Shown in pieces: positions 4,205-60,038 of a stretch of 64,000 nt of DNA. Made by a program: the position numbers and the translations under genes. The stretch comes from Candidatus Magasanikiibacteriota bacterium (GTDB lineage Bacteria > Patescibacteriota > Patescibacteriia > Magasanikbacterales > UBA922): assembly GCA_021648085.1 (NCBI GenBank), contig JAKITS010000001.1:452948-516947 (forward strand), read 5' to 3'. Numbering within the stretch: position 1 is the stretch's first letter; each line of letters opens with the position of its first letter. Under the pieces are notes generated by a model. That model was not told the origin of the DNA. It saw only the letters and a list, made by a program, of their open reading frames with translations, and did no database searches.

Positions 4205-5641
4205 ATGATAAAACAAACAGAATTAGGAAGAATTCCACCGCAAAACCTTGATGCCGAAAAATCTTTAATCGGTTCTATTTTGGTTGATCCAAATGCAATG
4301 CTAAAAATTGCAGACATGATTGAGGCAGATGATTTTTACAAAAGAGCTCATGCAAAAATATTTGAATCGATCTCCGAACTATACTCAAAAAATGAGCCCG
4401 TAGACCTACTTGTATTGAGCAATAAGCTCGAAGAGAAGGGAATACTAGAAAACATAGGCGGAAAATCTTATTTAGCTCAACTGTCCAATTCTGTACCCAC
4501 ATCATCACACGCAAAACATTATGCAGAAATAATAAAAAGAAAAGCAACACTTAGGAAACTAAGTGAGGTTAGCGAAAAAATTAGCGACCTAGTTTTTGGA
4601 GAAGAGACTGATGATGTGGAAGCAGTATTAGACAATGCCCAGCAATTGATGTACGGCGTCACAGAAAAACATTTAAAACAAAATTTCTCGCCAATTAGAT
4701 CCATTCTTAGTGACACATTTGAAAGAATAGATGAGCTGCACAGAGATAAAGGTAAAATGCGTGGAGTCCCAACTGGTTTTACAGATTTAGACAAACTATT
4801 GGCAGGACTACAAAAATCTGACCTAATTATTTTGGCAGCCCGCCCTTCTGTCGGAAAGACTTCTTTTGCTTTAGATATTGCCAGAAACGCAGCTGTGCAA
4901 GCCAAAGTTGGAGTTGGTCTTTTTTCATTGGAGATGAGCAAAGAACAACTTGTAGACCGTATGCTATGTGCACAAGCAAATATAAACTTGTGGAAAATGA
5001 GAAATGGAAGTTTGTCCGACAGTCCAGACAGTGATGACTTCAAAAAAATTGGCTCAGCGATGGGAGTTTTGTCCGAAGCTCCAATTTTTATAGACGACAG
5101 TGCTGGCGCAAATATAACTCAAATAAGAACCAAAGCTAGAAGATTAAAAACAGAACACGATATAGGACTTATTGTAATAGACTATTTGCAGTTGATGAGT
5201 AGTGCAGGCAGAAGATCTGACAATCGTGTTCAAGAAGTCGCTGATATGAGTCGTGGATTGAAACTTCTCGCTCGTGAATTAAATATTCCACTTCTTGTGC
5301 TTTCTCAGCTTTCCCGTGCAGCAGAACAAACTAAACCAGCAATACCAAAACTTTCTCATTTGCGTGATTCAGGAAGTATTGAGCAGGATGCTGATGTTGT
5401 TATTTTTTTATATAGAAAAGCAACCGACAGAAACTATAGACCAGAAGACATAACACCGCAAGAAAGATCTATCGCAGAAGTACACATCGCCAAACACAGA
5501 AATGGACCAGTTGGAATGATAAAAACATTTTTTGATGAAACTCAAGCCAGTTTCAAAAACTTAGACACAAGGTTTCAAACCACAGAACCACCCCAACAAC
5601 ATCAAGGAAGTGCACCCGTTCCAGAGGCTCCGCCGTTTTAA
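4205..5641 (+). CDS. dnaB: replicative DNA helicase DnaB
   Basis: N-terminal DnaB domain (PQNLDAEKSLIGSILVDP). Walker A ARPSVGKTSFALDIA. RecA-like motifs IVIDYLQLM and SQLSRAAEQ; H-motif …HRNGP. Confidence 0.95.
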   Translation: MIKQTELGRIPPQNLDAEKSLIGSILVDPNAMLKIADMIEADDFYKRAHAKIFESISELYSKNEPVDLLVLSNKLEEKGILENIGGKSYLAQLSNSVPTSSHAKHYAEIIKRKATLRKLSEVSEKISDLVFGEETDDVEAVLDNAQQLMYGVTEKHLKQNFSPIRSILSDTFERIDELHRDKGKMRGVPTGFTDLDKLLAGLQKSDLIILAARPSVGKTSFALDIARNAAVQAKVGVGLFSLEMSKEQLVDRMLCAQANINLWKMRNGSLSDSPDSDDFKKIGSAMGVLSEAPIFIDDSAGANITQIRTKARRLKTEHDIGLIVIDYLQLMSSAGRRSDNRVQEVADMSRGLKLLARELNIPLLVLSQLSRAAEQTKPAIPKLSHLRDSGSIEQDADVVIFLYRKATDRNYRPEDITPQERSIAEVHIAKHRNGPVGMIKTFFDETQASFKNLDTRFQTTEPPQQHQGSAPVPEAPPF

Positions 5642-5667
5642 AATAACTAATTATAAAAATAAATTAT

Positions 5668-5697
5668 CCCCTGGGCAAAAGCCCCAGGGTATTTTTT
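5668..5697 (+). terminator. Rho-independent terminator after dnaB
   Basis: Hairpin ccctggg-caaaagc-cccaggg followed by tattttttg. A second hairpin (acaccgagg…cctcggtgt, 5713-5734) lacks a T-run. Confidence 0.55.
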
Positions 5698-6831: not shown

Positions 6832-6860
6832 ACAAAAACCCGCATTTCGCGGGTTTTTTT
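6832..6860. terminator. bidirectional Rho-independent terminator (A-run/hairpin/T-run)
   Basis: aaaaa-cccgc-atttc-gcggg-ttttttt lies immediately 3' of both recR (+) and the giant surface protein gene (-). It is also part of duplicated segment copy 1. Confidence 0.65.
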
Positions 6861-6866
6861 ATGTTT

Positions 6867-9800
6867 TTATTTTAACTCTTTTCCTATTTCGTATTCTTCA
6901 TCATTTTTTATCGTCACTATTCTATCCCACCTAAAATTCAATCTACTAAAGGCTTCCTCGTTTTTAATATGTCTTTTTACTTGTTTTGTCTGGTCTGTTA
7001 GGTCTGGCTCTAGCCTAAATACTTCTGGGTTATTTTCATATTTAACAAGTGTGTAGTTTGGATGGCGATTTGTATAATCTATTATCTCACCAATTGTGTA
7101 TTTATTGAGAAGTCTTGGGTCAATATCTTCTATCCAATTCCAACTATAGTTTAGCTTATTAAATACTTCTTCAGAGTCTATCCAATATTTTTGATTACCA
7201 AGAAGTAGGTACACCATTGGATCTGTTGTTATTTTTACGAGAGCACCATATTTTGGATCATATTTTGGACCCCAAGGCATAAAACCTAAAGTGTCATCTT
7301 CTACTGTTTCTAGTCTTTTCTCTTCTACTATCTCCACATTATTCCAAGAGTCAAAGTATGTGTAGAAAACATCTGCCCTACTAAAAGCTCTTTTTTTACA
7401 GTCTGGTGTAACAAGATATACGGCAGAAGAGTTTGGTGTTTTATATACTCCACCTTCTTTTAGACTGCAGTCTGAACCTTGTTTTTCTGTTTGAGTATCA
7501 GTCTCAGTTTCTGTATTTAACTCATTTAACAGAATTGTGTCAAAATATGTTGATGCTGTTCCACCGCTTGAAAGAAATTTAGAATAAACAGTTTTTTCTC
7601 CATTTCCAGAAGGCAGTTTCCAGTTTAATTTTGAGGTAAATGGTGTAAATACTGAACCAGCAAAATCTTTTGAATTTGAAACTGCCATTCTATCTGCATC
7701 TAATATGTTAAAAGTTATAGTTACATCTCTTGACTCTGTTGTATAAGCTCCATAATTTATTACAACTGGATTAGAAATTTCTGATTCATCTGTTAAATTT
7801 ATTAGATTAATTTTCACAGAATCATAATTTAAAAACTCTGCATACTCTATTTCCAAATCTAAAACTCCATCTTTGTTTGTGTCTACTTTTTGACTCACAC
7901 CCTTTATTAGGTTCAATATAATTGGGTCTGACTCAATTGTTACCGTAATACTCTCTTTTGCTATTCTAGAGACAAACACACTATGAAAAGAAGCTCCAAC
8001 TTCTGCAGATTTTTCTTCTTGCAGGAAAAACTCTGTAAATAATAATCCTGACGATACACTTTCCGTAGCTGGAGTTTTGGATGGAGTTGGTGGTGGTGCA
8101 AAGAATCCACCGCCGGTAGACGCAACATCGTCATCTGTAATAGTTGCGGTTACACTTGCGATAGTTAAGCTGTCAAAGTTAGAGTCTGAGCTTGCAGATG
8201 TGTTTGAGATTATAGTTGTAGTCTCGCCATCAACCTCGCTATCATCTGTAGCTGTGACTGTCACAGTTTGTTCTGTATCCCAATTTGCATTTGTAAAGGT
8301 GAGGTCAGAGGAAGAAAGACTAACTTCTGAGTTTGATAGTGCGGCTGACACAGTTACATCGTCCGTAGGTTGTGCGTCTAAAACCGCAGTGTATGTGTCA
8401 GTTGTTGACCCTTCTGTCACAGAAACAGACGAAAGAGAGATTGTAACTCCTGCTGTATCATTGTTTGTAATTGTATATGTGTAAGTTGTAGTAGAACCTA
8501 GCGAACCTCCAACAGGGTTTGATATTGTTATTATTAGAGTTTCATCATTTTCAACCAAGTCATCATCTACTACAACCAAACTCAAAGAAGTTGTTGTGTT
8601 TCCATTTGTAATTGAAGCCGTTCCGCTAGAAAGTGTGTAATCTGTTCCACTTCCTGTTGCTGTTCCTCCTGTTATTGCATAATCTACTGAGACATCACTT
8701 ACTACACTTTGATCTGAAGAAATTAAGACAGAGACTGCTGTTGTTCCCTCATCTCCAGAAGCTGTGGTTGCAGAAAAATTAATCTCATAATCAAACTGCC
8801 AACGAGTATTATTTCCAGAATCACTACAACCGGTTGTACATACTATTTGTGTACTACTTAAGTTATTATTATCTTTTACATCTAGATATTGTGCGCTCGT
8901 TGTACTTTTTGGATCAAACTTTGTCTGTGTTCCAGAGCTACTACTTCTTAGGCTCAAAAGATTTCCAGATGTTCCTGCCAAAGTTAGAGTTCCATTTACT
9001 GTTGTGGTCGTACTAGCTGGAAGTGTAAAAGTGTTTGCAGATGAGTCTGTTTTAGTTAGGTTATAAAAAGTATTTGCACCAGAAATTGTCTGGCTTGCGC
9101 CAACAAAGTCTACCGTACTTGAGTTTGGTGTAAGTGTACCTCCTGTGTTTAGGAAGTCTCCTGTTATATTTAATGTTCCAGTTGCTGAATATATTCCAGA
9201 TGCCAAAGTTATATCATTATTTATATTTGTTGTTGCAACACTCGGAGCCAAACTATCTCCAGAATCTGTAAAATTTATAGAAATATCATAAAAATCCACA
9301 ATAGAAGTAGAATAAGCATCTGAACTTGCATCACCATTTCCAACATATTCTACTGTTCCTGAATCTGTGTCATTTGTAAGTGTTACAGTCTCACCTCCTT
9401 GAATACGAAGTGTTCCATCGTTGCTAAATGTACTTGAAACAGTTAAATTATTTCCATTTAATGCGACTGTTCCAGAGCTAATTGTCATTGTGCTTGTAGC
9501 TACCGTACTCGTATTGAATGTATATGTTCCACCTCCTGTGAAAGAAACATCATAAAAAGTTGAAAAACTTGGAAGAGTGTATGAACTAGCTCCATAAAAT
9601 ATAGCTGAACTTCCAGAGCTAAAACTAGGATAAGTTGCGTTTGTTGTAACAGTCTCACCACCTTGCATTTTTAAAATTCCACCATCTTGTACCACTACTG
9701 TTCCAGAAGATCCATTTACTATTAAAGTATTTCCGTTTAGGTCTAAGGTTCCTTCTATTATGTTTAAATCTGTATTCGCATAATCCATTGTTAAACCAGA

Positions 9801-12248
9801 ATTTAATGTGACAGTTCCTGATGATTTATTTATGTTTATATCTGAATTTATTTTATCTTCCACTCCTGTTAAATCTATTGTCTGATCTTGGGTTCCCGTT
9901 AGGTTGAATGTGGCCACATCTAAATTGTCAAATGTGCTGGCCATTGAAAAGTTTGTTCCAGTAAATTCTAATATATTACCAGGCATCCTACCATCAATAA
10001 GATTTAAAGTAGAAGAAACTACTAATGTATCTCCTGAAGCAATAGTGACTGTTTGACCACTATCTCCTTCTATTGTTAAGTTTGTAAAAGTAAAAGTTGT
10101 TGGTACATCTATAGTTGCTGATGTTGAATGAGTATAATATAATGTAGTTCCATTTTCATAAACAGTAGCACCAGCTCCAATAGTAAGATTGTAAACAAGA
10201 CTTGTTGTTCCGGTTGGGAATGTAAAAGTTCCGCCTGTAATAAAAAGACCCTCGTAAATATATGTGATTGAAAGATCACCTGTTCCACCATCGAAAGTAC
10301 CTCCAGAAACTATTAAAGCCCTATAACTTTCCATTAATGCACTTTGCATATTGAAAGTTCCACCAGAGATATTTATAGCATAGGAGTTAAAATCCAAATA
10401 GTTTGAATTTTGAGCATCAAAAGTTCCTCCTGTCATTGTAAAAGCACCGTTAAACACAATGTCAGTAGAACTTGCGTTTATTGTTCCAGCTTCTAAATTT
10501 AAAGTACTTTCAAAAGTAGTAGAAGCTACACCAGAAAATTCTATTGTTGTATTCGTTGCGTTTAGTGTAAATTTAGGCATATCGACATCTGCTGGAATTA
10601 TTATATTCCTTGTGTCTGTTCCTGTTATTTTGAGAAGTCCTGTTCCACCATCAAATGTAGTGGCCATAGAAAATCCACTTCCAGGACCTATAAATTCAAA
10701 AGTACCTGAACCATCCAAAGCACCATCAACTAAATTTAAAGTAGAAGAAACTACTAATGTATCTCCTGAAGCCATGCTCACTGTTTGATTAGTACTTCCA
10801 TCAATTATAAAGTTTGTAAAAGTAAAAGTTGTTGGTACATCTATAGTTGCTGATATTGAATGAGTATAATATAATGTAGTTCCATTTTCATAAACAGTAG
10901 CAGTTGCACCAATTGTTAAATTTCTTTTTAAAGTTGTTGTTCCTGTTGGGAATGTAAAAGTTCCTCCTGAAATTGTAAGATTTGCATATGTATATTGAAT
11001 TGTAAGATTTCCTGTTCCACCATCGAAAGTTCCTCCAGAAACTGTTAAAGTGTTATAACTTTCCATTAATGCACTTTGTAAACTAAAAATACCACCTGAT
11101 ATAGTGGTAGAGCCATTAATATCCAAATAATTTGAGTTTTGTGCATCAAAAGTTCCTCCTGTCATTATAATAGATTTAAAGCTTATATCCGTAGAGCTTG
11201 CATTTATAGTACCAGCATCCAAATATAAATAACCTTCAAAAGTTGTAGACGCTACTCCAGAAAATTCTATTGTTGTGTTTACTGCGTCCAATCTAAGTAA
11301 AGGAAGCTTAACATTTGCATCAAGTATAATATTTCTTGTTTCTACTCCTGATATCTTAAGCTGTCCAGATGATGCAGAAGATCCGCCATCAAATGTTGTA
11401 GCCAAAGAAAAACCACTCCCAGGACCTGTAAATTCTAAAACTCCAGTGCCATCTAGCTCTCCGTCTATAAGCGTAAGAGTGGAAGAGACTATTACAGTGT
11501 CACCAGTATAAATAGCTAACCGCTGACCGCTTCCACCAGCAATTGTAAGGTTTGTAAAAGTAAAAGTTGTTGGAACATTTAAAACAGCACTAGTTATAAA
11601 AGTCATTATCAAATTTGTGCCATTTTCATATACAGTAGCACCAGCTCCAATAGTTAAATCGTCTGTAATAGTTGTTGTTCCGGTTGGGAATGTAAAAGTT
11701 CCACCTGAAATTGTAAGATCTGCATAACTATACTGGAATATCATAGTTCCTGTTCCACCATCGAAAGTACCTCCTGAGAAAACGAAATTATTATATGGTT
11801 CGAATACTGAAGATTGCATATTAAATGTACCTCCTGAAATTGTAGTAGATCCATTAATATCAATAATCGTATCCCCTGCATTAAATGTGCCATCAGCCTG
11901 TGTAAAATTTCCAGTAGTAAGCGTAACACCTGTTGCAACAGTAATAGTCCCAGAATAACCAGCATCTATTTGAAAAGTTGTGACAGTAGAATCAACATCA
12001 ATAGTTGCATTGTCCACATCTCCACCATCAAAAATAGCTATGTCTCCAGAAATAGGATGAGTAGTATCATTTGCCCCACCGGTTGTGGTGGACCAATTTG
12101 TGTCAGCAGAAAAATTTCCTCCAGAAGTTCCTATCCAATATTTGGTGGCTGCTTGTGACGCCGTAGGAATTAGTGAAAAAAATAAAAATAAAAAAATAAA
12201 AAAGAATAATTTTCTATACAAAAAATTATTTTTAGGTTTAGCTATCAT
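6867..12248 (-). CDS. giant secreted repeat protein (1793 aa): signal peptide, 4x ~190-aa beta-helix-like GGTF repeats, Calx-beta-like domains, Pro-rich linker, ~400-aa C-terminal domain; putative adhesin/surface protein
   Basis: N-terminal signal peptide MIAKPKNNFLYRKLFFFIFLFLFFSLIPTASQA. Repeated blocks ISGGTF(N/D)…GGTG…LTISGGTFTFPTGTT…LTIGAGATVYENGT. Calx-beta-like segment …LVVVDDDLVENDETLIITISNPVGGSLG. Linker GGGFFAPPPTPSKTP. Confidence 0.85.
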   Translation of the reverse strand: MIAKPKNNFLYRKLFFFIFLFLFFSLIPTASQAATKYWIGTSGGNFSADTNWSTTTGGANDTTHPISGDIAIFDGGDVDNATIDVDSTVTTFQIDAGYSGTITVATGVTLTTGNFTQADGTFNAGDTIIDINGSTTISGGTFNMQSSVFEPYNNFVFSGGTFDGGTGTMIFQYSYADLTISGGTFTFPTGTTTITDDLTIGAGATVYENGTNLIMTFITSAVLNVPTTFTFTNLTIAGGSGQRLAIYTGDTVIVSSTLTLIDGELDGTGVLEFTGPGSGFSLATTFDGGSSASSGQLKISGVETRNIILDANVKLPLLRLDAVNTTIEFSGVASTTFEGYLYLDAGTINASSTDISFKSIIMTGGTFDAQNSNYLDINGSTTISGGIFSLQSALMESYNTLTVSGGTFDGGTGNLTIQYTYANLTISGGTFTFPTGTTTLKRNLTIGATATVYENGTTLYYTHSISATIDVPTTFTFTNFIIDGSTNQTVSMASGDTLVVSSTLNLVDGALDGSGTFEFIGPGSGFSMATTFDGGTGLLKITGTDTRNIIIPADVDMPKFTLNATNTTIEFSGVASTTFESTLNLEAGTINASSTDIVFNGAFTMTGGTFDAQNSNYLDFNSYAINISGGTFNMQSALMESYRALIVSGGTFDGGTGDLSITYIYEGLFITGGTFTFPTGTTSLVYNLTIGAGATVYENGTTLYYTHSTSATIDVPTTFTFTNLTIEGDSGQTVTIASGDTLVVSSTLNLIDGRMPGNILEFTGTNFSMASTFDNLDVATFNLTGTQDQTIDLTGVEDKINSDININKSSGTVTLNSGLTMDYANTDLNIIEGTLDLNGNTLIVNGSSGTVVVQDGGILKMQGGETVTTNATYPSFSSGSSAIFYGASSYTLPSFSTFYDVSFTGGGTYTFNTSTVATSTMTISSGTVALNGNNLTVSSTFSNDGTLRIQGGETVTLTNDTDSGTVEYVGNGDASSDAYSTSIVDFYDISINFTDSGDSLAPSVATTNINNDITLASGIYSATGTLNITGDFLNTGGTLTPNSSTVDFVGASQTISGANTFYNLTKTDSSANTFTLPASTTTTVNGTLTLAGTSGNLLSLRSSSSGTQTKFDPKSTTSAQYLDVKDNNNLSSTQIVCTTGCSDSGNNTRWQFDYEINFSATTASGDEGTTAVSVLISSDQSVVSDVSVDYAITGGTATGSGTDYTLSSGTASITNGNTTTSLSLVVVDDDLVENDETLIITISNPVGGSLGSTTTYTYTITNNDTAGVTISLSSVSVTEGSTTDTYTAVLDAQPTDDVTVSAALSNSEVSLSSSDLTFTNANWDTEQTVTVTATDDSEVDGETTTIISNTSASSDSNFDSLTIASVTATITDDDVASTGGGFFAPPPTPSKTPATESVSSGLLFTEFFLQEEKSAEVGASFHSVFVSRIAKESITVTIESDPIILNLIKGVSQKVDTNKDGVLDLEIEYAEFLNYDSVKINLINLTDESEISNPVVINYGAYTTESRDVTITFNILDADRMAVSNSKDFAGSVFTPFTSKLNWKLPSGNGEKTVYSKFLSSGGTASTYFDTILLNELNTETETDTQTEKQGSDCSLKEGGVYKTPNSSAVYLVTPDCKKRAFSRADVFYTYFDSWNNVEIVEEKRLETVEDDTLGFMPWGPKYDPKYGALVKITTDPMVYLLLGNQKYWIDSEEVFNKLNYSWNWIEDIDPRLLNKYTIGEIIDYTNRHPNYTLVKYENNPEVFRLEPDLTDQTKQVKRHIKNEEAFSRLNFRWDRIVTIKNDEEYEIGKELK

Positions 12249-12337
12249 ATATAAAAATCTCTATTAATCTTTTAATTATATCTTTTAATTACAATAATAT
12301 CAAATTGGGAATTGTGAATAAAAAATTATTAAAAATA

Positions 12338-12364
12338 AAAAAAGACGCTCAGCGTCTTTTTTTT
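12338..12364. terminator. Rho-independent terminator of rplU (hairpin gacgc-tca-gcgtc flanked by A- and T-runs)
   Basis: aaaaaaagacgctcagcgtctttttttt, 12 nt 3' of the rplU stop. This is the last element inside duplication copy 1. Confidence 0.6.
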
Positions 12365-12377
12365 AACTGAAATATTT

Positions 12378-19264: not shown

Positions 19265-19630
19265 CTACCTTCTAGCAAAAACTCCAGCAGTCACATCCAC
19301 ATAATCAATTTTGGAAATAGGAATCATCTCCAATTCTTGTAAACGATCTTGGATACTATGCATAGAACGATATTGTGAAATCTCAAAACTTAATTTATCA
19401 TTTTCACGCTCTAGTGATACTAGTTGTTTTTCCAAATCAGCAATTTGATAACCTTTTGTAGCCACAGAATTAACACTTCCCAAATACATAATCCCAAAAA
19501 AAGCAATCAAACAGAAAAGGAGTGCGCGAGTAGTTTTTGTCATAAACCACTTTCGAGCTTTCAATTTCTCGTCTCGCATTGCATGATTTTTATTGTGATT
19601 GTTTACACGCATATTATATTTTTTCTGCAA
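19265..19630 (-). CDS. ftsL: FtsL-like cell division protein (single TM + coiled coil)
   Basis: Position immediately downstream of rsmH (17-nt overlap). One TM helix (ALLFCLIAFFGIMYLG) followed by a coiled-coil segment (LEKQLVSLERENDKLSFEISQY). Confidence 0.6.
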   Translation of the reverse strand: MQKKYNMRVNNHNKNHAMRDEKLKARKWFMTKTTRALLFCLIAFFGIMYLGSVNSVATKGYQIADLEKQLVSLERENDKLSFEISQYRSMHSIQDRLQELEMIPISKIDYVDVTAGVFARR

Positions 19631-20507
19631 CTCTTAATTTTGCACTTCTAGCTCGCCTATTTTCATTTAATTCTTCTTGTCCTGGCGAAACTGGCTTTTT
19701 TGTAATAATTTTCAACTTATTTTGCTGTGATTTGAAAAAATGTTTTACAACCCTATCTTCCAAAGAATGAAAACTTATAACAGCCAGTCTTCCGCCTGTT
19801 TTCAAATTTTCTACAGCTTGAGGAAGTACATCTTTCAAAATACGGATCTCATCGTTTACAGCAATTCGCAGTGCTTGTAAAATTCTAGTTGCCGGATGTA
19901 TTTTTTCTCTTGAACCCTTCTTTTTGTAAATATCCATTGCAATTTCTACCAACTGACCTGTTTTAGAAAATTTTTCTTTTCTTCTTTTTTCAATTACAAC
20001 TTTTGCAATATCTTTGGCAAATCTCTCTTCACCATATTCACGAAAGATTTTCTCCAATTCTTCAAAACTCGCATTGTTTAATATATCTGCTGCTGTTTCA
20101 GAATTTTCATGATCTTGGGCATTTCCACCAAACCTCATATCTAACAGTTCATCTTTTTGAAAAGAAAATCCACGACCACGCTCTTCAAACTGTGGACTAG
20201 ACCAGCCTAAATCAAACAAGATTGCATCCACTTCTTTAAAAACCTCTTTTTCCAAAATCTTGCTAAAGTTAGAAAAATTATCTCTGACCAATACAACATT
20301 TTCTTCTGAAGATTCTAAAAATTTTTTTGCACGCAAAATTGCCTCGGGATCCATATCTATCCCAAGCAATTTTCCATTTGGTAAAATCTTTTCTAAAATG
20401 AGCTCCGAATGCCCTGCATCGCCAAGCGTCCCATCCACGACCTTCATTCCAGACTTCAAATTTAACAACTCTACCACCTCATTCACTAATACTGGTTTAT
20501 GTCTCAT
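19614..20507 (-). CDS. rsmH: 16S rRNA (cytosine1402-N4)-methyltransferase RsmH
   Basis: MRHKPVLVNEVVELL…VDGTLGDAGHS… matches the conserved RsmH/MraW N-terminus and SAM-binding region. Confidence 0.9.
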   Translation of the reverse strand: MRHKPVLVNEVVELLNLKSGMKVVDGTLGDAGHSELILEKILPNGKLLGIDMDPEAILRAKKFLESSEENVVLVRDNFSNFSKILEKEVFKEVDAILFDLGWSSPQFEERGRGFSFQKDELLDMRFGGNAQDHENSETAADILNNASFEELEKIFREYGEERFAKDIAKVVIEKRRKEKFSKTGQLVEIAMDIYKKKGSREKIHPATRILQALRIAVNDEIRILKDVLPQAVENLKTGGRLAVISFHSLEDRVVKHFFKSQQNKLKIITKKPVSPGQEELNENRRARSAKLRVAEKI

Positions 20508-20518
20508 ACTTCCTTATT

Positions 20519-20950
20519 TTATACCCCCAAATCCGCCATCTGCTCTGCTATTTCACTACTTTCTTGTTCTGCTTTTGTAGTATATTCCACCCACTTTTCC
20601 TGATCCCAAATCTCCAATCTATTGTACAAACCTGCCACAATAGTTGTTTTTTTGAGCCCAGCAAAACTGCGCAAATATTCTGGCAAAACTATTCTTCCCT
20701 GCTTGTCTATATCCACATCCATTGCTCCAGCCAACATAAGTCTAGAAAACGCACGACTCTTGGCCTGACTAAAAGGCAAAGAAGCAAGTTTTTCCGCTAG
20801 CTTTTCCCATTCTTTTTTTGTATAAAGAAATAAACAATTGTCCAATCCACGAGTAATTACTGCACCACCTTTTAGATCTTCTCTAAATTTCTTTGGCACA
20901 GCCATTCTCCCCTTCTCGTCTAAATTGTGCTTGTATTCTCCAATAAACAT
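20519..20950 (-). CDS. mraZ: transcriptional regulator MraZ
   Basis: MFIGEYKHNLDEKGRMAVPKKFRE…; duplicated MraZ domain (DKQGRIVLPEYLR). Confidence 0.9.
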   Translation of the reverse strand: MFIGEYKHNLDEKGRMAVPKKFREDLKGGAVITRGLDNCLFLYTKKEWEKLAEKLASLPFSQAKSRAFSRLMLAGAMDVDIDKQGRIVLPEYLRSFAGLKKTTIVAGLYNRLEIWDQEKWVEYTTKAEQESSEIAEQMADLGV

Positions 20951-20984
20951 AATTTTTTTAATGAGGCAAACCTCTTTGTGGTGT

Positions 20985-21223
20985 CAATCCTAATTTGAGT
21001 GATATAACCTATTGGTTAGTATTTTTTCAAACTAGTGAAAGAGCAAACGCTCAAATTAGGATTGGGGGCTATCACCAAATATTATTTTGTTGGCTAAATC
21101 TTCAAATTTTGAGCGGGACGAAAAGAAAAAATCTTTGCCCTGCCATAGCATCGGAAATATTTTTTCTTAAAGTCGCAGTCAAAATTTGAAGATTTAGGTA
21201 GAAATAGTGTTTGGTGATAGCCC
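20985..21223. other. two adjacent long imperfect palindromes (hairpin 1: 20985-21064 with 16/17-bp stem; hairpin 2: 21066-21223, ~70-bp imperfect arms incl. perfect 13-bp ggctatcaccaaa/tttggtgatagcc) - candidate structured RNA / regulatory element in mraZ leader
   Basis: Seen directly. caatcctaatttgagtg…cgctcaaattaggattg; ggctatcaccaaat…ggctaaatcttcaaattttgagcgg… mirrored by …cgcagtcaaaatttgaagatttaggtag…atttggtgatagcc. The two track ORFs here (20995-21189 + and 21102-21299 -) give mirror-image peptides, as expected for a palindrome. Confidence 0.6.
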
Positions 21224-21350
21224 TATAGTAGGAAGACAAGCATTTTCCCCACTTCTCACCACTTATATCCATTATATACCACTTCCGCACATTTCTCAAC
21301 CATACTTATCCACAGGGTAGAAAATCATGATGCACGATACAGATAACATG

Positions 21351-21557
21351 AGGCAAAAAACACACATCATCCTGAGCGAAATGGAGCAAAGCGGAATGCA
21401 GTCGAATGCCTGCCGGCAGGCAGGGATCTTGAAATAGTTTCACTAAATTAAGAATTAACAAAGAATAAAAAAGACGGGCTAAAGTTTTATTTTAATTATT
21501 TATACTTTGATTATGTTGTACGGGGATCCGTTCGACTCCACTTCGTTTCGCTCAGGA
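21351..21557. repeat. MITE-like element: 21-bp terminal inverted repeats cacacRtcatcctgagcgaaa flanking AT-rich core
   Basis: Left end cacacatcatcctgagcgaaa (21351-21371); right end tttcgctcaggatgacgtgtg (21537-21557). Also contains the perfect 14-bp palindrome gcctgccggcaggc. Confidence 0.6.
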
Positions 21558-21565
21558 TGACGTGT

Positions 21566-21652
21566 GTTAATTTATCATTCTCAGCTTGACTTAGGAATCC
21601 AGAATCTCCAAATAAGAACATTGATTCAAACCTTAAAACCACAATCAAGTTG
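21566..21652. repeat. MITE-like element (~87 bp) with TIRs tcattcYcaRcttgaYt, related to elements at 27399-27424 and 29639-29729
   Basis: atcattctcagcttgacttaggaatcc … caatcaagttgggaatgac (rc gtcattcccaacttgattg). Confidence 0.55.
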
Positions 21653-21682
21653 GGAATGACAAAAAAGGAACACAGGACATTC

Positions 21683-21716
21683 TACAAAAAATAAAAAAAA
21701 CCGTTAGTTTTACCTA
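21683..21716. terminator. bidirectional terminator (A8-ccgttag-ttttac-ctaacgg-ctttt), probably the uvrC terminator
   Basis: Perfect 7-bp stem with an 8-A run on the plus strand (U-run on the minus strand). Confidence 0.5.
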
Positions 21717-21951
21717 ACGGCTTTTAAAAAACCGATGTCTTTTTTCAAAAAAAGTATATGGAATTTTGCTCAATAAAAAAAATAGAAATAAACCAGGTAA
21801 AAATCCTACGACAAATAGAACACTCCCCCTTCACCCCTAAAGCCTTAAATTTTGTAGCCATTACTTCCTCCTTTAGGAAAAGTATTGAAAAATGAACTAA
21901 AAACTACTAACTCAGAATTATATCCTATTTTACTCCTTTTGTCAGCCTTTT

Positions 21952-23211
21952 TTACCTTATTTTCCTCAACTTCCTCTGATAATTTATTGCAAACCTGTGC
22001 GCCTCATCGCGCACTTTTATGAAAGTTTCTTTGTTTTCTTCTACCAACTTATAATTTATCTGATCAAAAATAAATTCATTCTTTTTTCGTTTGGCGCCTT
22101 TTGCGATTCCAACCACAGGAATTTCTACACTAAATTCCTTCAAAATCTTTTTTACTCTGTTTACTTGCGGTTTTCCACCGTCTATTAGAAATACATTCGG
22201 CAAAAGCCACTTGTCATTACTCTGCTCATCTATGTCCACTGCCCCAGAATGGCGAAGCCTTCTTCTTATTACTTCTTCCAAACAAGCTGTATCGTTTTGT
22301 CCTTTTACAGTTCTTATTTTAAATTTTCTATATTTACTTTTGTTTGCTTCACCGTTTTCAAACACAACCATAGAGCCAACTTTGCCAGTTTCACCCAGAT
22401 TAGAAATATCATAACCTTCTATTCTTTTTAATTTTTTCTCATCTTCAATGTTTGCCACAAAACTTTTGTTTATAAGTGCAATATCACGAATTTCTTGAAG
22501 AGAAAAAATCTGATTGCGAAGTCTGCGCGCCTCCTCGAACTCTTCTTTTTTTGCACTCTCTTTCATCCTTATTTTTAGCTGTTTTATCAAAATCTTCTTT
22601 TTTCCATTCAAAAATAATCCAAGCGGATTTACAATTTTTCTTTTATAATCTTTTGCAGAAATTTCACCTACACAAACACCTTCGCACTGATGCATTTGAT
22701 AATACATACAAGATCGTTTTGCGTTTGGTTTGCACACAGAAAAATGAAAGATCCTACGAAGTACTGCTAAAGTTTCCTTAGATTTTAATCCAGGAAAAGG
22801 CCCAAAAATTTTTAAATATTTCTTTTTTATTTCTTTTTCAGAAAATTGCTTGAAAGTGTGCTGACGCAAAGTCAAAACACGCGAAAATTCATCTTTTGTA
22901 AAAATTATATAATTCCAACTTTTATCGTCCTTCCCTTTTACATTATATTTTGGCTCATACTTTTTTATATAAATTGCCTCCAAAATCACTGCTTCCAGTA
23001 CAGAATCAGTTTGCTTGTATTTTATATTTTTTACCTCGTGAATCAACTCTTCTATTGGTCTAGAAGTTCTTTGCCCAGCAAAATAACTACGCACACGACT
23101 TTTGAGCGAAGTCGCCTTTCCTACATATATAAGCTGTTTTTTTACACAATAAAAAAGATAAATTCCTGGTTTATCTGGTAAATTTTGGATTTTTTTCTTT
23201 ATATTCTGCAT
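21952..23211 (-). CDS. uvrC: excinuclease ABC subunit C (short form, 419 aa, lacks C-terminal (HhH)2 domain)
   Basis: GIY-YIG motif GIYLFYCVKKQLIYVGKATSLKSRVRSYF. UVR motif EEFEEARRLRNQIFSLQEI. RNase H-like endonuclease region IEGYDISNLGETGKVGSMVVFENG. The protein ends ~180 aa earlier than canonical UvrC. Confidence 0.9.
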   Translation of the reverse strand: MQNIKKKIQNLPDKPGIYLFYCVKKQLIYVGKATSLKSRVRSYFAGQRTSRPIEELIHEVKNIKYKQTDSVLEAVILEAIYIKKYEPKYNVKGKDDKSWNYIIFTKDEFSRVLTLRQHTFKQFSEKEIKKKYLKIFGPFPGLKSKETLAVLRRIFHFSVCKPNAKRSCMYYQMHQCEGVCVGEISAKDYKRKIVNPLGLFLNGKKKILIKQLKIRMKESAKKEEFEEARRLRNQIFSLQEIRDIALINKSFVANIEDEKKLKRIEGYDISNLGETGKVGSMVVFENGEANKSKYRKFKIRTVKGQNDTACLEEVIRRRLRHSGAVDIDEQSNDKWLLPNVFLIDGGKPQVNRVKKILKEFSVEIPVVGIAKGAKRKKNEFIFDQINYKLVEENKETFIKVRDEAHRFAINYQRKLRKIR

Positions 23212-27041: not shown

Positions 27042-27219
27042 CAAATATTAAAAAATAGAGTAGTAAAGACTCACTACTTAGAATATCAAGATCATTTGAT
27101 AATTTAAGTAGGTACGAATACAAAAAACCTACAACCGACAGTCTTGTCTCTGGAATCTGTCATGGCTCCAAAGACAAAGCCCCGCTACTTTCTAGGTAGT
27201 GGGGTTCTTTTTTATTGTT

Positions 27220-27424
27220 ATCATATTGAGCGGAGTGAAACGGAGTTGAAAACCCAATGCACGTCATATTGAGTGGAGTGAAACGGAGTCGAAATATCTC
27301 GATTTAATTTCATTAGAACTTTGAATATTTTATGTTTTGGTGATGATACTGTCCCGAGATCCTTCGGCTTCGCTCAGGATGACGTGTGGGATTTTTGTCA
27401 TCCCCAACTTGATTGGGGATCCCC
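27220..27424. repeat. cluster of MITE-like repeats: partial copy 27220-27262, full ~130-bp element 27260-27390 (cacgtcatattgagYggagtgaaacggagtcgaaatatctcg … cgagatccttcggcttcgctcaggatgacgtgtg), solo gtcatccccaacttgattggggatcc 27399-27424
   Basis: Same termini (cacgtcat..tgagcg / cgctcaggatgacgtg) as the elements at 21351-21557 and 29740-29873. Confidence 0.6.
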
Positions 27425-27570
27425 GCCTACCGGCGGACAAACAAAATTTATATAATAGTGTAATTATTATAGTTTATATATTTTTATATAAAAATAATTC
27501 TGATTTGTAGACTCTGGATTCCCGATCGGGGTCGGGAATAACAATACATATCCAGTTTTATTTTCATGTC

Positions 27571-29638: not shown

Positions 29639-29939
29639 CACGTCATATTGAGCTTGACTGGGGATCCAGGGTTTATATCACAGTTCTATTTTGTATACTC
29701 TGGATTCCCAGTCAAGCTGAGAATGACAGAAAACTTTTTCATGTCATATTGAGCGGAGTGAAACGGAGTCGAAATATCTTGGGACTATATCATTAGAACT
29801 TTGAATATTCAGTCTTCTAATGTTTTTGTTTCGAGATTCTTCGGCTGTCGCTCAGGATGGCGTGATAGAAAGGTGATATTGTCTCGAGATCCATTCTACT
29901 TCATTCCACTTTGCCTCATTCCGCTCAGGATGACATGTG
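29639..29939. repeat. cluster of three MITE-like repeats: 29639-29729 (~91 bp, TIR cacgtcatattgagcttgactggggatcc / ggattcccagtcaagctgagaatgacag), 29740-29873 (~134 bp, near-identical to 27260-27390 element), partial 29883-29939
   Basis: Direct sequence comparison. These fill the whole uvrB-rnj intergenic region. Confidence 0.6.
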
Positions 29940-30011
29940 TTGAATTTTCTTATTTTCTTTTTTTACTTTTTAATTTATAAACTTTTTAACTTCCTTTCTC
30001 TATCTAATCTG

Positions 30012-36974: not shown

Positions 36975-37444
36975 ATATTCACTTTCCTGTCATTTCGAAC
37001 TAAAGTGAGAAATCCCTTAAATGTTGATTTAAATATATTCTTTTTTAGCGATAACAACAAAATTCTCTTATCTTACATTTTGGCACCAAAAGATAATCAA
37101 AAGTGCCGAACGGTTGAAAATTTTAGGCTTAATTTCTTTTTAAAACTTATTTAACTCACCGCAGTTCGCTAAATTCGTTATTTTCTGTATCCTCAGAAAA
37201 CCATAAGTTTTGAAAATAAATTAGTCCAAAAATTTCAAATGTTCGGGAGGTTTAGAATAGGAAAAGAAAAGAACATTTCGAACAAGCGAAGCGATAGAAC
37301 AACTTTAACTTTAAAAAATATGAAACACAAAAGTAAAACATTTAAAATATTCTGGACAATCGTAAGTATTGTAATGATTGTAAGTATGGTTTTCTTTACT
37401 ATCTTGCCAGTCTTTTACTAATCTGAGTTTTTGTTCTAAAATAG

Positions 37445-37472
37445 ACAGACAATTAAAATTGTCTGTTTTTTA
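37445..37472 (+). terminator. terminator hairpin acagacaatt-aa-aattgtctgt + T6 downstream of a possible small membrane-peptide ORF (37323-37421)
   Basis: Perfect 10-bp stem and a T-run abutting the annotated recJ ATG. Confidence 0.45.
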
Positions 37473-46815: not shown

Positions 46816-49800
46816 AAAAAACCCGCATTTCGCGGGTTTTTTATGTTTTTATTTTAACTCTTTTCCTATTTCGTATTCTTCATCATTTTTTATCGTCACT
46901 ATTCTATCCCACCTAAAATTCAATCTACTAAAGGCTTCCTCGTTTTTAATATGTCTTTTTACTTGTTTTGTCTGGTCTGTTAGGTCTGGCTCTAGCCTAA
47001 ATACTTCTGGGTTATTTTCATATTTAACAAGTGTGTAGTTTGGATGGCGATTTGTATAATCTATTATCTCACCAATTGTGTATTTATTGAGAAGTCTTGG
47101 GTCAATATCTTCTATCCAATTCCAACTATAGTTTAGTTTATTAAATACTTCTTCAGAGTCTATCCAATATTTTTGATTACCAAGAAGTAGGTACACCATT
47201 GGATCTGTTGTAATTTTTACAAGAGCACCATATTTTGGATCATATTTTGGACCCCAAGGCATAAAACCTAAAGTGTCATCTTCTACTGTTTCTAGTCTTT
47301 TCTCTTCTACTATCTCCACATTATTCCAAGAGTCAAAGTATGTGTAGAAAACATCTGCCCTACTAAAAGCTCTTTTTTTACAGTCTGGTGTAACAAGATA
47401 TACGGCAGAAGAGTTTGGTGTTTTATATACTCCACCTTCTTTTAGACTGCAGTCTGAACCTTGTTTTTCTGTTTGAGTATCAGTCTCAGTTTCTGTATTT
47501 AACTCATTTAACAGAATTGTGTCAAAATATGTTGATGCTGTTCCACCGCTTGAAAGAAATTTAGAATAAACAGTTTTTTCTCCATTTCCAGAAGGCAGTT
47601 TCCAGTTTAATTTTGAGGTAAATGGTGTAAATACTGAACCAGCAAAATCTTTTGAATTTGAAACTGCCATTCTATCTGCATCTAATATGTTAAAAGTTAT
47701 AGTTACATCTCTTGACTCTGTTGTATAAGCTCCATAATTTATTACAACTGGATTAGAAATTTCTGATTCATCTGTTAAATTTATTAGATTAATTTTCACA
47801 GAATCATAATTTAAAAACTCTGCATACTCTATTTCCAAATCTAAAACTCCATCTTTGTTTGTGTCTACTTTTTGACTCACACCCTTTATTAGGTTCAATA
47901 TAATTGGGTCTGACTCAATTGTTACCGTAATACTCTCTTTTGCTATTCTAGAGACAAACACACTATGAAAAGAAGCTCCAACTTCTGCAGATTTTTCTTC
48001 TTGCAGGAAAAACTCTGTAAATAATAATCCTGACGATACACTTTCCGTAGCTGGAGTTTTGGATGGAGTTGGTGGTGGTGCAAAGAATCCACCGCCGGTA
48101 GACGCAACATCGTCATCTGTAATAGTTGCGGTTACACTTGCGATAGTTAAGCTGTCAAAGTTAGAGTCTGAGCTTGCAGATGTGTTTGAGATTATAGTTG
48201 TAGTCTCGCCATCAACCTCGCTATCATCTGTAGCTGTGACTGTCACAGTTTGTTCTGTATCCCAATTTGCATTTGTAAAGGTGAGGTCAGAGGAAGAAAG
48301 ACTAACTTCTGAGTTTGATAGTGCGGCTGACACAGTTACATCGTCCGTAGGTTGTGCGTCTAAAACCGCAGTGTATGTGTCAGTTGTTGACCCTTCTGTC
48401 ACAGAAACAGACGAAAGAGAGATTGTAACTCCTGCTGTATCATTGTTTGTAATTGTATATGTGTAAGTTGTAGTAGAACCTAGCGAACCTCCAACAGGGT
48501 TTGATATTGTTATTATTAGAGTTTCATCATTTTCAACCAAGTCATCATCTACTACAACCAAACTCAAAGAAGTTGTTGTGTTTCCATTTGTAATTGAAGC
48601 CGTTCCGCTAGAAAGTGTGTAATCTGTTCCACTTCCTGTTGCTGTTCCTCCTGTTATTGCATAATCTACTGAGACATCACTTACTACACTTTGATCTGAA
48701 GAAATTAAGACAGAGACTGCTGTTGTTCCCTCATCTCCAGAAGCTGTGGTTGCAGAAAAATTAATCTCATAATCAAACTGCCAACGAGTATTATTTCCAG
48801 AATCACTACAACCGGTTGTACATACTATTTGTGTACTACTTAAGTTATTATTATCTTTTACATCTAGATATTGTGCGCTCGTTGTACTTTTTGGATCAAA
48901 CTTTGTCTGTGTTCCAGAGCTACTACTTCTTAGGCTCAAAAGATTTCCAGATGTTCCTGCCAAAGTTAGAGTTCCATTTACTGTTGTGGTCGTACTAGCT
49001 GGAAGTGTAAAAGTGTTTGCAGATGAGTCTGTTTTAGTTAGGTTATAAAAAGTATTTGCACCAGAAATTGTCTGGCTTGCGCCAACAAAGTCTACCGTAC
49101 TTGAGTTTGGTGTAAGTGTACCTCCTGTGTTTAGGAAGTCTCCTGTTATATTTAATGTTCCAGTTGCTGAATATATTCCAGATGCCAAAGTTATATCATT
49201 ATTTATATTTGTTGTTGCAACACTCGGAGCCAAACTATCTCCAGAATCTGTAAAATTTATAGAAATATCATAAAAATCCACAATAGAAGTAGAATAAGCA
49301 TCTGAACTTGCATCACCATTTCCAACATATTCTACTGTTCCTGAATCTGTGTCATTTGTAAGTGTTACAGTCTCACCTCCTTGAATACGAAGTGTTCCAT
49401 CGTTGCTAAATGTACTTGAAACAGTTAAATTATTTCCATTTAATGCGACTGTTCCAGAGCTAATTGTCATTGTGCTTGTAGCTACCGTACTCGTATTGAA
49501 TGTATATGTTCCACCTCCTGTGAAAGAAACATCATAAAAAGTTGAAAAACTTGGAAGAGTGTATGAACTAGCTCCATAAAATATAGCTGAACTTCCAGAG
49601 CTAAAACTAGGATAAGTTGCGTTTGTTGTAACAGTCTCACCACCTTGCATTTTTAAAATTCCACCATCTTGTACCACTACTGTTCCAGAAGATCCATTTA
49701 CTATTAAAGTATTTCCGTTTAGGTCTAAGGTTCCTTCTATTATGTTTAAATCTGTATTCGCATAATCCATTGTTAAACCAGAATTTAATGTGACAGTTCC

Positions 49801-59365: not shown

Positions 59366-59684
59366 ATGCTATGAATTATATAAATAATAATTAATAAATA
59401 ATCTTACGAATTTAATTATACCATATTTATTAATTTTTTTTATATTAGACTTGTGTATAACTTACAAATTCTCCTCGTATAGATGCATTTCTAGACTATT
59501 AAAATAAACTGATTTTTTAGTATGTTTTTATATTATAATTGTGCATTTCATAAACATAGATAATACATATAATTTATAAAATTTTATTTATAAGTTCTAT
59601 TCAAGAAACTATCAAAAAAATATCCTGTTGGATATTTTTGTACACTCCAAAAGAATCTCACTACTCACCTCTTCGGGTTGCGCT

Positions 59685-59824
59685 CCTAAGAACCTTCAGG
59701 TTCTTAGGAAAACCTCCTCTACAAGTAGGGGAAAGTTTTCCCCTACCACCCCTTAGTTCGAATCCCTTGGCGTCAAAAAAATACCATTTCAGGTATTTTG
59801 TTTGTACACGCCAAGGGATTCGAA
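59685..59824. other. hairpin-rich non-coding element with inverted 17-bp tRNA T-arm/acceptor-like repeats (ttcgaatcccttggcgt / acgccaagggattcgaa); degenerate tRNA-derived sequence or att-like site
   Basis: Perfect hairpins cctaagaacc-ttca-ggttcttagg (59685-59708), gtagggg-N8-cccctac (59725-59746) and aaatacc-N5-ggtattt (59779-59799). GGTTCGAATCC-like T-loop strings occur in both orientations. No cloverleaf can be completed (see rejected). Confidence 0.35.
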
Positions 59825-59972
59825 CCCGAATATGCAGGTTTTGAAATGTCACTTAACCTAGCAAAATTGCTAAAATAAGCGAAATTTACGACTTCGCTAA
59901 AATCTCAATTTTCGCTGAAAAACGACAAAAACTGAATTTTTGGGCAGATTTTGGGCAGATTGATCTCAAAAC

Positions 59973-60003
59973 AAAACACCACTCTATTTTGAAGTGGTGT
60001 TTT
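59973..60003 (-). terminator. terminator for 60039-60578 gene (aacaccact…agtggtgtt + A/T runs)
   Basis: Perfect 9-bp stem with a U-run on the minus strand. Confidence 0.5.
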
Positions 60004-60038
60004 GTTTTTGTTTGAATATCGAGATAGCTTCCGAGCTT

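Follow-up and report, generated by a model that had tools for sequence, protein, structure and literature searches.

The uvrC-mraZ spacer of a Magasanikbacteria genome as a probable mosaic of a division-operon control region, a leader hairpin and a mobile palindrome

Bacteria of the Candidate Phyla Radiation (CPR) are uncultured, and the regulation of cell division in them is almost unknown. A 64,000-nt stretch of a Candidatus Magasanikiibacteriota genome (GCA_021648085.1, contig JAKITS010000001.1, positions 452,948 to 516,947; here "the window," with a G+C content of 32.5%) carries a division and cell wall (dcw) operon with mraZ, rsmH, and an ftsL-like gene, and raises the question of why the gap that separates uvrC from mraZ (20951-21951) should be so long and so rich in palindromes. 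As a preliminary description of this DNA had pointed out, the gap is unusual for the genome; at 1001 nt, it is the longest of the 54 in the window, where the median is 53 nt and the second longest 673 nt. Directly upstream of mraZ stand a smaller hairpin (H1) and a larger palindrome (H2), for which that description had offered two kinds of explanation: attenuators, processing sites, or stability elements of the operon mRNA on the one hand and a hairpin-type mobile element on the other. From a comparison with relatives, we conclude, with a probability of about 75%, that the spacer is a mosaic in which H2 is a later insertion of a miniature inverted-repeat transposable element (MITE), H1 is an older RNA structure, and the core consists of a promoter, MraZ boxes, a DnaA box, and a 27-nt hairpin.

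The relatives compared were contigs encoding an MraZ 79 to 94% identical to that of the window, together with 80 more distant metagenome loci. Both palindromes were recovered where the preliminary description had placed them, and both fold far better than shuffled sequence. The outer arms of H2 (21066-21087 and 21202-21223) are 91% complementary and its inner arms (21094-21143 and 21148-21197) 80% complementary around a centre at 21145. The palindrome folds at -64.4 kcal/mol (z = -12.5 versus shuffled sequence) when read on the mraZ strand and at -78.9 kcal/mol (z = -13.3) on the plus strand. The coding content of H2 is limited to the spurious mirror-image open reading frames (ORFs) that the preliminary description had taken as confirmation of its symmetry. 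Orthologous sites in L001, L004, L009, L110, and L113 are empty of H2, and their flanks align with the window base for base (alignment A4): the window follows its relatives through the promoter region to ...CTTCCTAC, continues with ∼160 extra nucleotides, and then reaches H1. The extra nucleotides coincide exactly with H2, which is therefore a lineage-specific insertion. Since none of the relatives examined carries H2 at this site, the operon does not need it, and the proposal that the two hairpins work as paired regulatory elements fails on this point.

The inserted sequence is one copy of a dispersed family. A BLAST comparison of the fetched loci revealed a copy in L007 that is 80% identical and of the same polarity but lies at a non-homologous site, downstream of ftsL and past a terminator, where it is interrupted by the contig end. 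The terminal repeat GGGCTATCACCAAAYAYTATTT gave no matches in a collection of one genome per species that does not include the window's genome, both because of that omission and because the H2 termini are too variable. The successful query was the core common to the window and L007 copies, GAGCGRGACGAAAAGAAAAAA, which produced 21 matches on 19 contigs in the same one-genome-per-species scan, all of them from a single metagenome-assembled genome (MAG), CAZHUL01. This is a sister MAG and also the source of L005, whose MraZ is 94% identical to the window's. Fuzzy arm searches extended the list by more full copies, by solo arms, and by two 73-nt derivatives with internal deletions, bringing the family in CAZHUL01 to at least 25 copies or arms; core-motif matches in L091 and in a giant-virus contig (L115) were rejected as chance hits with no flanking similarity. 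CAZHUL01 (GCA_964535435.1; L090 and L092-L109) is labelled "uncultured Gammaproteobacteria bacterium," a label that looks wrong given the uvrC-mraZ-rsmH locus and MraZ of L005.

All copies of H2 are intergenic, mostly within tens of nucleotides of neighbouring genes, and many are found at contig ends, as expected of repeats, which break assemblies. The forward orientation of the family, defined by the GAGCGRGACGAAAAG arm at the 5' end, corresponds to the plus strand of the window and is thus antisense to mraZ. Between co-directional genes, seven copies are antisense and three sense; we considered an orientation bias relative to transcription, but the 7 to 3 split is not significant. Perfect 5-bp target site duplications (TSDs) flank three copies (L098, TTGTA; L099, ATTAT; and L106, AAAAG), and near duplications matching at 4 of 5 bp flank three more (L090, L101, and L105); from the base composition of the window, we estimate the chance of a perfect 5-bp match at ∼0.002 per copy. 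The family occurs in many copies, is intergenic in either orientation, and has several 5-bp TSDs, and H2 is therefore, in all likelihood, a MITE. The idea of a mobile hairpin thus holds for H2, with its family copies, the TSDs of some of them, and the empty sites; H1 is single-copy and found at the orthologous site only. A kinship of H2 with the window's other repeat family, suggested earlier from shared strings, finds little support, as the similarity is limited to a short TGAGCG.

Bacterial MITEs are familiar as long imperfect intergenic palindromes that are often transcribed, including Correia elements in Neisseria, ERIC/IRU in enterobacteria, RUP in pneumococcus, and the Tn3-derived TIMEs. 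H2 is likewise short, non-coding, folded end to end, multi-copy, intergenic, placed within a predicted 5' untranslated region (UTR), and polymorphic between close relatives, and copies of its family are flanked by short direct duplications. It has no match in Rfam and no sequence similarity to a described family, its host is a CPR bacterium, and it differs from other MITEs in that its termini vary but stay complementary, with an internal asymmetric core as the most conserved part. Whereas Correia and ERIC elements duplicate TA, the H2 family has a TSD of 5 bp, which in combination with GGG(G/A)C termini appears to resemble Tn3-derived elements. An active-looking MITE family in Magasanikbacteria is of practical concern, as such repeats break assemblies and may pass for regulatory RNAs; in annotation, long leader palindromes should be compared with orthologous empty sites before they are called regulators.

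Could the H2 family be a structured RNA after all, that is, a multi-copy RNA gene or cis-element (for example, an mRNA stabiliser or a terminator-like module) that has spread by recombination? In the family alignment (A3), 25 of the 59 consensus pairs show compensatory changes between copies, and the orientation that corresponds to the window's plus strand has 41 G·U cells but only 12 A·C cells. The asymmetric core (GAGCGAGACGAAAAG versus CTTGAAGTCGTAGCC) is nearly invariant, and the variable termini keep their complementarity. Against this stand the perfect 5-bp TSDs, the occurrence of both orientations relative to the flanking genes, the internal-deletion derivatives and solo arms, and a presence and absence that differ among close relatives; the family has no match in Rfam, and hairpins tolerant of G·T on one DNA strand could give the same bias. 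We therefore regard a structured RNA family as unlikely.

H1 has a different distribution. Its arms (20985-20999 and 21050-21064) are 15 nt each and 100% complementary, with 50 nt between them, and the fold adds one extra pair beyond a bulge; on the mraZ strand, its energy is -23.6 kcal/mol (z = -5.5), a value that 0 of 200 shuffles equalled. Orthologues of H1 occur only upstream of mraZ, in L001/L002/L004/L006, L003/L005/L007/L008, L009, and L110, all with an MraZ at least 84% identical to the window's, and H1 was not found in L111-L113 and L116-L118 (79 to 83% identical). The preliminary description had named relatives without the hairpins as the observation that would undo its reading of them; such relatives exist for H2 throughout, whereas H1 is kept in close relatives only. 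Among the six distinct sequences, all 101 cells of the 17-pair closing stem are paired, compared with 24 to 53% of cells for slid-partner controls. Seven of the pairs have changes on both sides, and the covariation score is 0.545, versus 0.30 for shuffles and ≤0.18 for slid partners. The wobble cells on the mraZ-sense strand comprise eight G·U or U·G and no A·C, so only the sense RNA preserves the structure. Conservation extends to part of the loop, TTTGCTCTTTCA. H1 is thus probably a 5' UTR RNA structure under selection in the subclade of the window.

A competing view of H1 is that it is the functionless relic of an older palindromic insertion, whose arms have been kept complementary by quasi-palindrome template-switch correction and not by selection on RNA. 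It is confined to one subclade, its layout is that of a small MITE (80 nt overall, with a 15- to 17-bp terminal inverted repeat), and H2 was later inserted exactly at its place, which suggests a permissive site. Yet there is no other copy of H1 in the window's 64 kb or in ∼127 kb of the sister MAG, and part of the loop is conserved as well as the stem. Furthermore, template switching predicts perfect Watson-Crick arms, whereas three lineages have G·U pairs, in the sense strand only, and none has A·C. On balance, we find the relic possible but doubtful and prefer an RNA structure under selection.

Both hairpins most likely lie in the mraZ leader, as originally proposed, as both are located between the predicted promoter and the mraZ start. 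This location, the high stability of both hairpins, and the conserved pairing of H1 would suit dedicated regulators of the dcw leader (attenuators, processing elements, or stability elements). For H2, this role is refuted by its absence from every orthologous leader examined; more than 25 copies occur elsewhere in the sister genome. Attenuation finds no support at either hairpin, as no U-tract follows H1 (the next bases are ACACCAC) or H2 (CCAATCC), and the terminator scan detected only the site at 21696-21725 on the minus strand and sites inside uvrC. Relatives with an MraZ at most 83% identical to the window's (L111-L113 and L116-L118) are without H1 yet keep the remaining control region. 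That both hairpins are dedicated regulators is, in our judgement, decidedly unlikely.

The control region itself lies upstream of the two palindromes and was missed by the preliminary description, which mentioned neither the MraZ-box array, the DnaA box, nor the 27-nt hairpin. The predicted sigma-70-like promoter has its -35 hexamer at 21294-21299 and its -10 hexamer at 21271-21276 on the minus strand, an arrangement that is conserved in relatives. Four short direct repeats overlap the -10 box and the predicted transcription start; the periodic pattern occurs once in the window, with 0 occurrences expected by chance, and it is conserved in most relatives. In Mollicutes, the MraZ operator consists of direct repeats AAAGTG[T/G] (Fisunov 2016, as quoted in PMC8475190), and in E. 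coli, "MraZ boxes" are located upstream of the dcw cluster (Eraso 2014, as quoted in PMC8475190). The four (A)AAGTGG/TAATGG repeats of the window, which run with a 10-nt period over the mraZ promoter, match the Mollicutes consensus and form a probable MraZ operator. They would differ from the Mollicutes and E. coli sites in that one repeat appears to double as part of the -10 box and the last as the 5' arm of an RNA hairpin.

A perfect match to the DnaA-box consensus, invariant in alignment A4, directly precedes the -35 hexamer. Most of the ∼80 loci have a DnaA box, in one orientation or the other, ahead of the mraZ promoter, and in L010-L089 it is mostly within ∼150 nt upstream of mraZ, by the promoter or the upstream terminator. 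This conservation suggests that transcription of the division operon is linked to DnaA. One could also ask whether the locus serves as a replication origin or acts in some other way at the DNA level, as it combines a perfect, conserved TTATCCACA with AT-rich palindromes capable of forming cruciforms. However, there is a single DnaA box, the GC skew has no switch near 21 kb, and the genes on either side are on the same strand; moreover, in H1 and the small hairpin, the non-Watson-Crick pairs are G·U only, which points to RNA rather than DNA. An origin at this site is hardly credible.

A hairpin of only 27 nt, with the invariant loop AAAUGCUUGUC, is widely conserved in the leader; its 5' arm overlaps the fourth MraZ box. 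The 9-mer RTGCYTGTM occurs upstream of mraZ in 38 distinct Magasanikbacteria sequences, usually 27 to 60 nt from the start codon; its single occurrence in the window is 293 nt upstream of the mraZ start because H1 and H2 intervene. Further examples of the hairpin are found in L001 (3872-3904), L038 (1456-1488), L113 (1456-1488), and 38 other loci. The stems are wholly different between lineages (GUGGGGAA/UUCCUAC, GAUAAAUA/UAUUUAUC, CACC/GGUG, and others), and all 8 pairs covary: 93.4% of cells are paired, versus 45 to 61% for slid partners, and no shuffle reached the observed values. Read as sense RNA, many of the pairs are G·U. A covariance model searched against both strands of 407 kb gave 42 matches, all upstream of mraZ on the sense strand; nearly all are training sequences, so the result demonstrates specificity and not independent discovery. 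We consider the hairpin a candidate new leader motif, without an Rfam family. With its DnaA box, Mollicutes-like MraZ-box array, and covarying hairpin, the locus offers a readable dcw control region for CPR bacteria.

Our literature search for related leader RNAs found only the mraW RNA motif (RF01746), which is conserved ahead of mraW/mraZ in Actinobacteria and is listed for Corynebacterium glutamicum (PMC3890552). It too is a conserved RNA structure of this operon's 5' leader, and H1 and especially the AAAUGCUUGUC hairpin occupy an equivalent place. The mraW motif differs from both in phylum, size, and architecture, and there was no match to RF01746 even at an E value of ≤10. MITEs in leaders and MraZ operators are already known kinds of element, but three things appear to be undescribed: an H2 family in CPR bacteria, H1 with its restriction to one clade, and, most notably, the covarying AAAUGCUUGUC hairpin. 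A bolder and rather speculative proposal is that the AAAUGCUUGUC hairpin, perhaps with H1 as a second part here, represents a new class of cis-regulatory RNA of the CPR division/cell wall operon, with a loop read by a trans-acting factor. If this is true, the reader could be RsmH, MraZ, a ribonuclease, or a small RNA, for example, and the class would add a post-transcriptional layer to MraZ autorepression. There is no Shine-Dalgarno sequence near the start in any mraZ leader examined, including that of the window, and leader structure could therefore matter for translation; an element of the proposed class, if it exists, could also control how mraZ is translated.

Three other interpretations of the loop were rejected. 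Pairing of the AUGCUUGUC loop with mraZ codons 6 to 8 (ACAAGCA in the window) is contradicted by codon 7, which varies (K/S/N/A and others) while the loop is constant. An AUG or GUG in the loop is unlikely to start an upstream ORF, as a ribosome-binding site is lacking, the reading frames that follow share neither phase nor length, and substitutions are not codon-like. Mimicry of the RsmH-methylated 16S rRNA site (GCCCGUCA versus GCUUGUCU, 5/8) is too weak. As a separate observation, nine loci (L014, L018, L019, L025, L055, L073, L111, L116, and L118) carry three direct repeats of ATT(A/C/T)GTG, ∼10 and 13 nt apart, in the last ∼45 nt before the mraZ ATG, and in L014, L016, L033, and L064, inverted copies of the repeat form a long hairpin around the AUGCUUGUC hairpin; the repeats may serve as a second operator or function as RNA. 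Furthermore, L019, L025, L111, and L116 have a PDDEXK_3-family gene directly upstream of mraZ, in place of the promoter/MraZ-box block, and these lineages retain the AUGCUUGUC hairpin and ATTCGTG repeats.

Several observations weigh against the mosaic as we describe it. The window's own copy of H2 has no recognisable TSD in alignment A4, it is the only copy within the window's 64 kb, and no autonomous transposon with ends matching H2 was seen among the fetched loci. The G·U excess of the family and its conserved asymmetric core are not obviously needed by a purely DNA-level parasite, and the excess leaves some room for a constraint at the level of RNA or single-stranded DNA. The evidence for H1 comes from six sequences of four to five lineages, and in the window H1 folds slightly better antisense (-30.3 versus -23.6 kcal/mol). 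Finally, the promoter and transcription start are consensus predictions, so the place of the hairpins in the mRNA is likewise only predicted.

If the mosaic is correct, the ancestral control region would have been compact, as it is in L113 (159 nt), with a terminator, a DnaA box, a promoter overlapped by the boxes, and a short AAAUGCUUGUC hairpin. By analogy with E. coli and Mollicutes, MraZ may repress its own operon at the promoter-embedded box array, possibly with input from DnaA, and the AAAUGCUUGUC hairpin would sit near the predicted 5' end of the mRNA. The structures, their presence or absence in relatives, the copy number, the TSDs, and the covariation were observed directly, and we infer from there that the predicted promoter is used, that MraZ and DnaA bind, and that either hairpin affects expression. 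In the lineage of the window, a small gene that has since decayed and two palindromic repeats appear to have separated the core from uvrC, and the leader would have been lengthened twice, first by H1, now fixed in the subclade, and later by H2. Since its pairing is maintained on the sense RNA, H1 is probably a self-contained structural module of the 5' UTR that would affect mRNA stability, processing, or translation. H2 would have transposed immediately 5' of H1, in the window's genome only. Because H2 forms a self-contained fold (-64 kcal/mol for the mRNA strand), its neighbours are probably undisturbed and the insertion tolerated. Other bacterial MITEs have been described as adding RNase III-type processing or stability sites to transcripts, and H2 may do the same here.

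Table 1. Features of the uvrC-mraZ spacer and adjoining genes (window coordinates)
Feature	Coordinates	Strand	Description
ftsL-like gene	19265-19630	-	Synteny
rsmH	19614-20507	-	Synteny
mraZ	20519-20950	-	N terminus MFIGEYKHNLDEKGR; Pfam MraZ match
Window-specific insertion, 15 nt	20963-20977	-	AAAGAGGTTTGCCTC; between H1 and mraZ start; small GAGG/CCTC hairpin (alignment A4, fold)
H1	20985-21064	-	80-nt hairpin; 15- to 17-bp closing stem; ∼46-nt loop with two small sub-hairpins
H2	21066-21223	+	158-nt imperfect palindrome; copy of dispersed MITE family
Conserved mraZ-leader hairpin, 27 nt	21227-21253	-	8-bp stem; 11-nt loop AAAUGCUUGUC
MraZ-box array (probable)	21249-21284	-	AAGTGG, TAATGG, AAGTGG, AAGTGG; exact 10-nt period
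Predicted mraZ promoter	21271-21299	-	TTGAGA, 17 nt, TATAAT; sigma-70-like; 11/12 consensus matches
DnaA-box consensus	21306-21314	+	TTATCCACA, perfect; TGTGGATAA on minus strand
Palindromic repeat B	21359-21568	.	28-nt terminal inverted repeats (AACACACATCATCCTGAGCGAAATGGAG), 154 nt apart
Palindromic repeat A	21575-21661	.	TGTCATTCCCAACTTGA ... TCAAGCTGAGAATGA
Intrinsic terminator	21696-21725	-	12-bp stem, then T-run; ends uvrC/small-gene transcript; conserved in relatives
38-aa ORF	21745-21861	-	MATKFKALGVKGECSICRR...; perfect AGGAGG at 21867-21872; promoter-like site at 21917-21945
uvrC	21952-23211	-	Synteny

The remainder of the gap accounts for much of its length (Table 1). The MraZ of the window is 100% identical to a protein that NCBI assigns to a Candidatus Magasanikbacteria MAG. 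On the minus strand of the window, the gene order is uvrA, a PAP2-family gene (on the opposite strand), uvrC, mraZ, rsmH, and the ftsL-like gene, and relatives keep the order uvrA, PAP2, uvrC, ..., mraZ, rsmH, ftsL with uvrC-mraZ spacers that differ widely in length. The spacer is 159 nt in L113, where it comprises the control region only; ∼613 nt in the L001 group, with a gene for a Cys-rich protein of 79 amino acids (aa); 854 nt in L009, with two small genes (78 and 70 aa); and 1476 nt in the L003 group, with the 79-aa gene, another that encodes 206 aa, and a single palindromic repeat. L113 retains the promoter, MraZ boxes, and small hairpin despite its short spacer. The kilobase in the window is not a leader designed to be long; it owes its length to accumulated insertions and a decayed gene.

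The preliminary description had also seen no credible ORF in the gap. This overlooks the 38-aa ORF on the minus strand, which comes with a perfect AGGAGG ribosome-binding site, a promoter-like site of its own, and a terminator. At the same position downstream of uvrC and with the same signals, relatives have a Cys-rich gene of 78 to 79 aa (CCVCETTQP...), and a tblastn comparison of the 38-aa ORF with the 79-aa and 206-aa proteins of relatives found no similarity anywhere in the gap. The 38-aa ORF appears to be a decayed small gene that has retained its signals and whose coding part is no longer recognisably homologous. Of the two palindromic repeats that follow, repeat A also occupies this site in L003, L005, L007, and L008 but in neither L001 nor L009. 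Repeat B is a member of the window's other repeat family, and L003 and L009 do not carry it here. Related copies of repeat B are present in other long gaps of the window (27234-27422 and 29642-29941). Palindromic repeats of the GTCATCCTGAGCGAA.../GTCATATTGAGCGGAGTGAAACGGAGTCGAA type were observed at 27042-27570, 29647-30011, and 21359-21661, with copies common to the three gaps and to relatives.

Known structured RNAs do not explain the spacer. The whole window had no Rfam match at gathering scores, and between 20700 and 22200 a search at an E value of ≤10 produced only plant miRNA-precursor models and scattered weak matches, all far below gathering scores. ARAGORN detected no tRNA or transfer-messenger RNA (tmRNA) in the window. 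These results bear out the earlier impression that RNase P RNA, tmRNA, signal recognition particle RNA, and 6S RNA are lacking here. Two other gaps in the window are also long, at 36975-37471 (497 nt) and 59366-60038 (673 nt), and are likewise without an Rfam or tRNA match.

Elsewhere, the window contains a 5.5-kb direct duplication (6834-12365 and 46817-52357), the copies of which are 40 kb apart and 99.66% identical, and each includes a 1793-aa ORF with internal repeats of ∼1.1 kb that are about 77% identical. In L002, a transposase-like HTH_Tnp_2 gene and an rve-integrase gene are located directly downstream of the ftsL-like gene (4393-5685).

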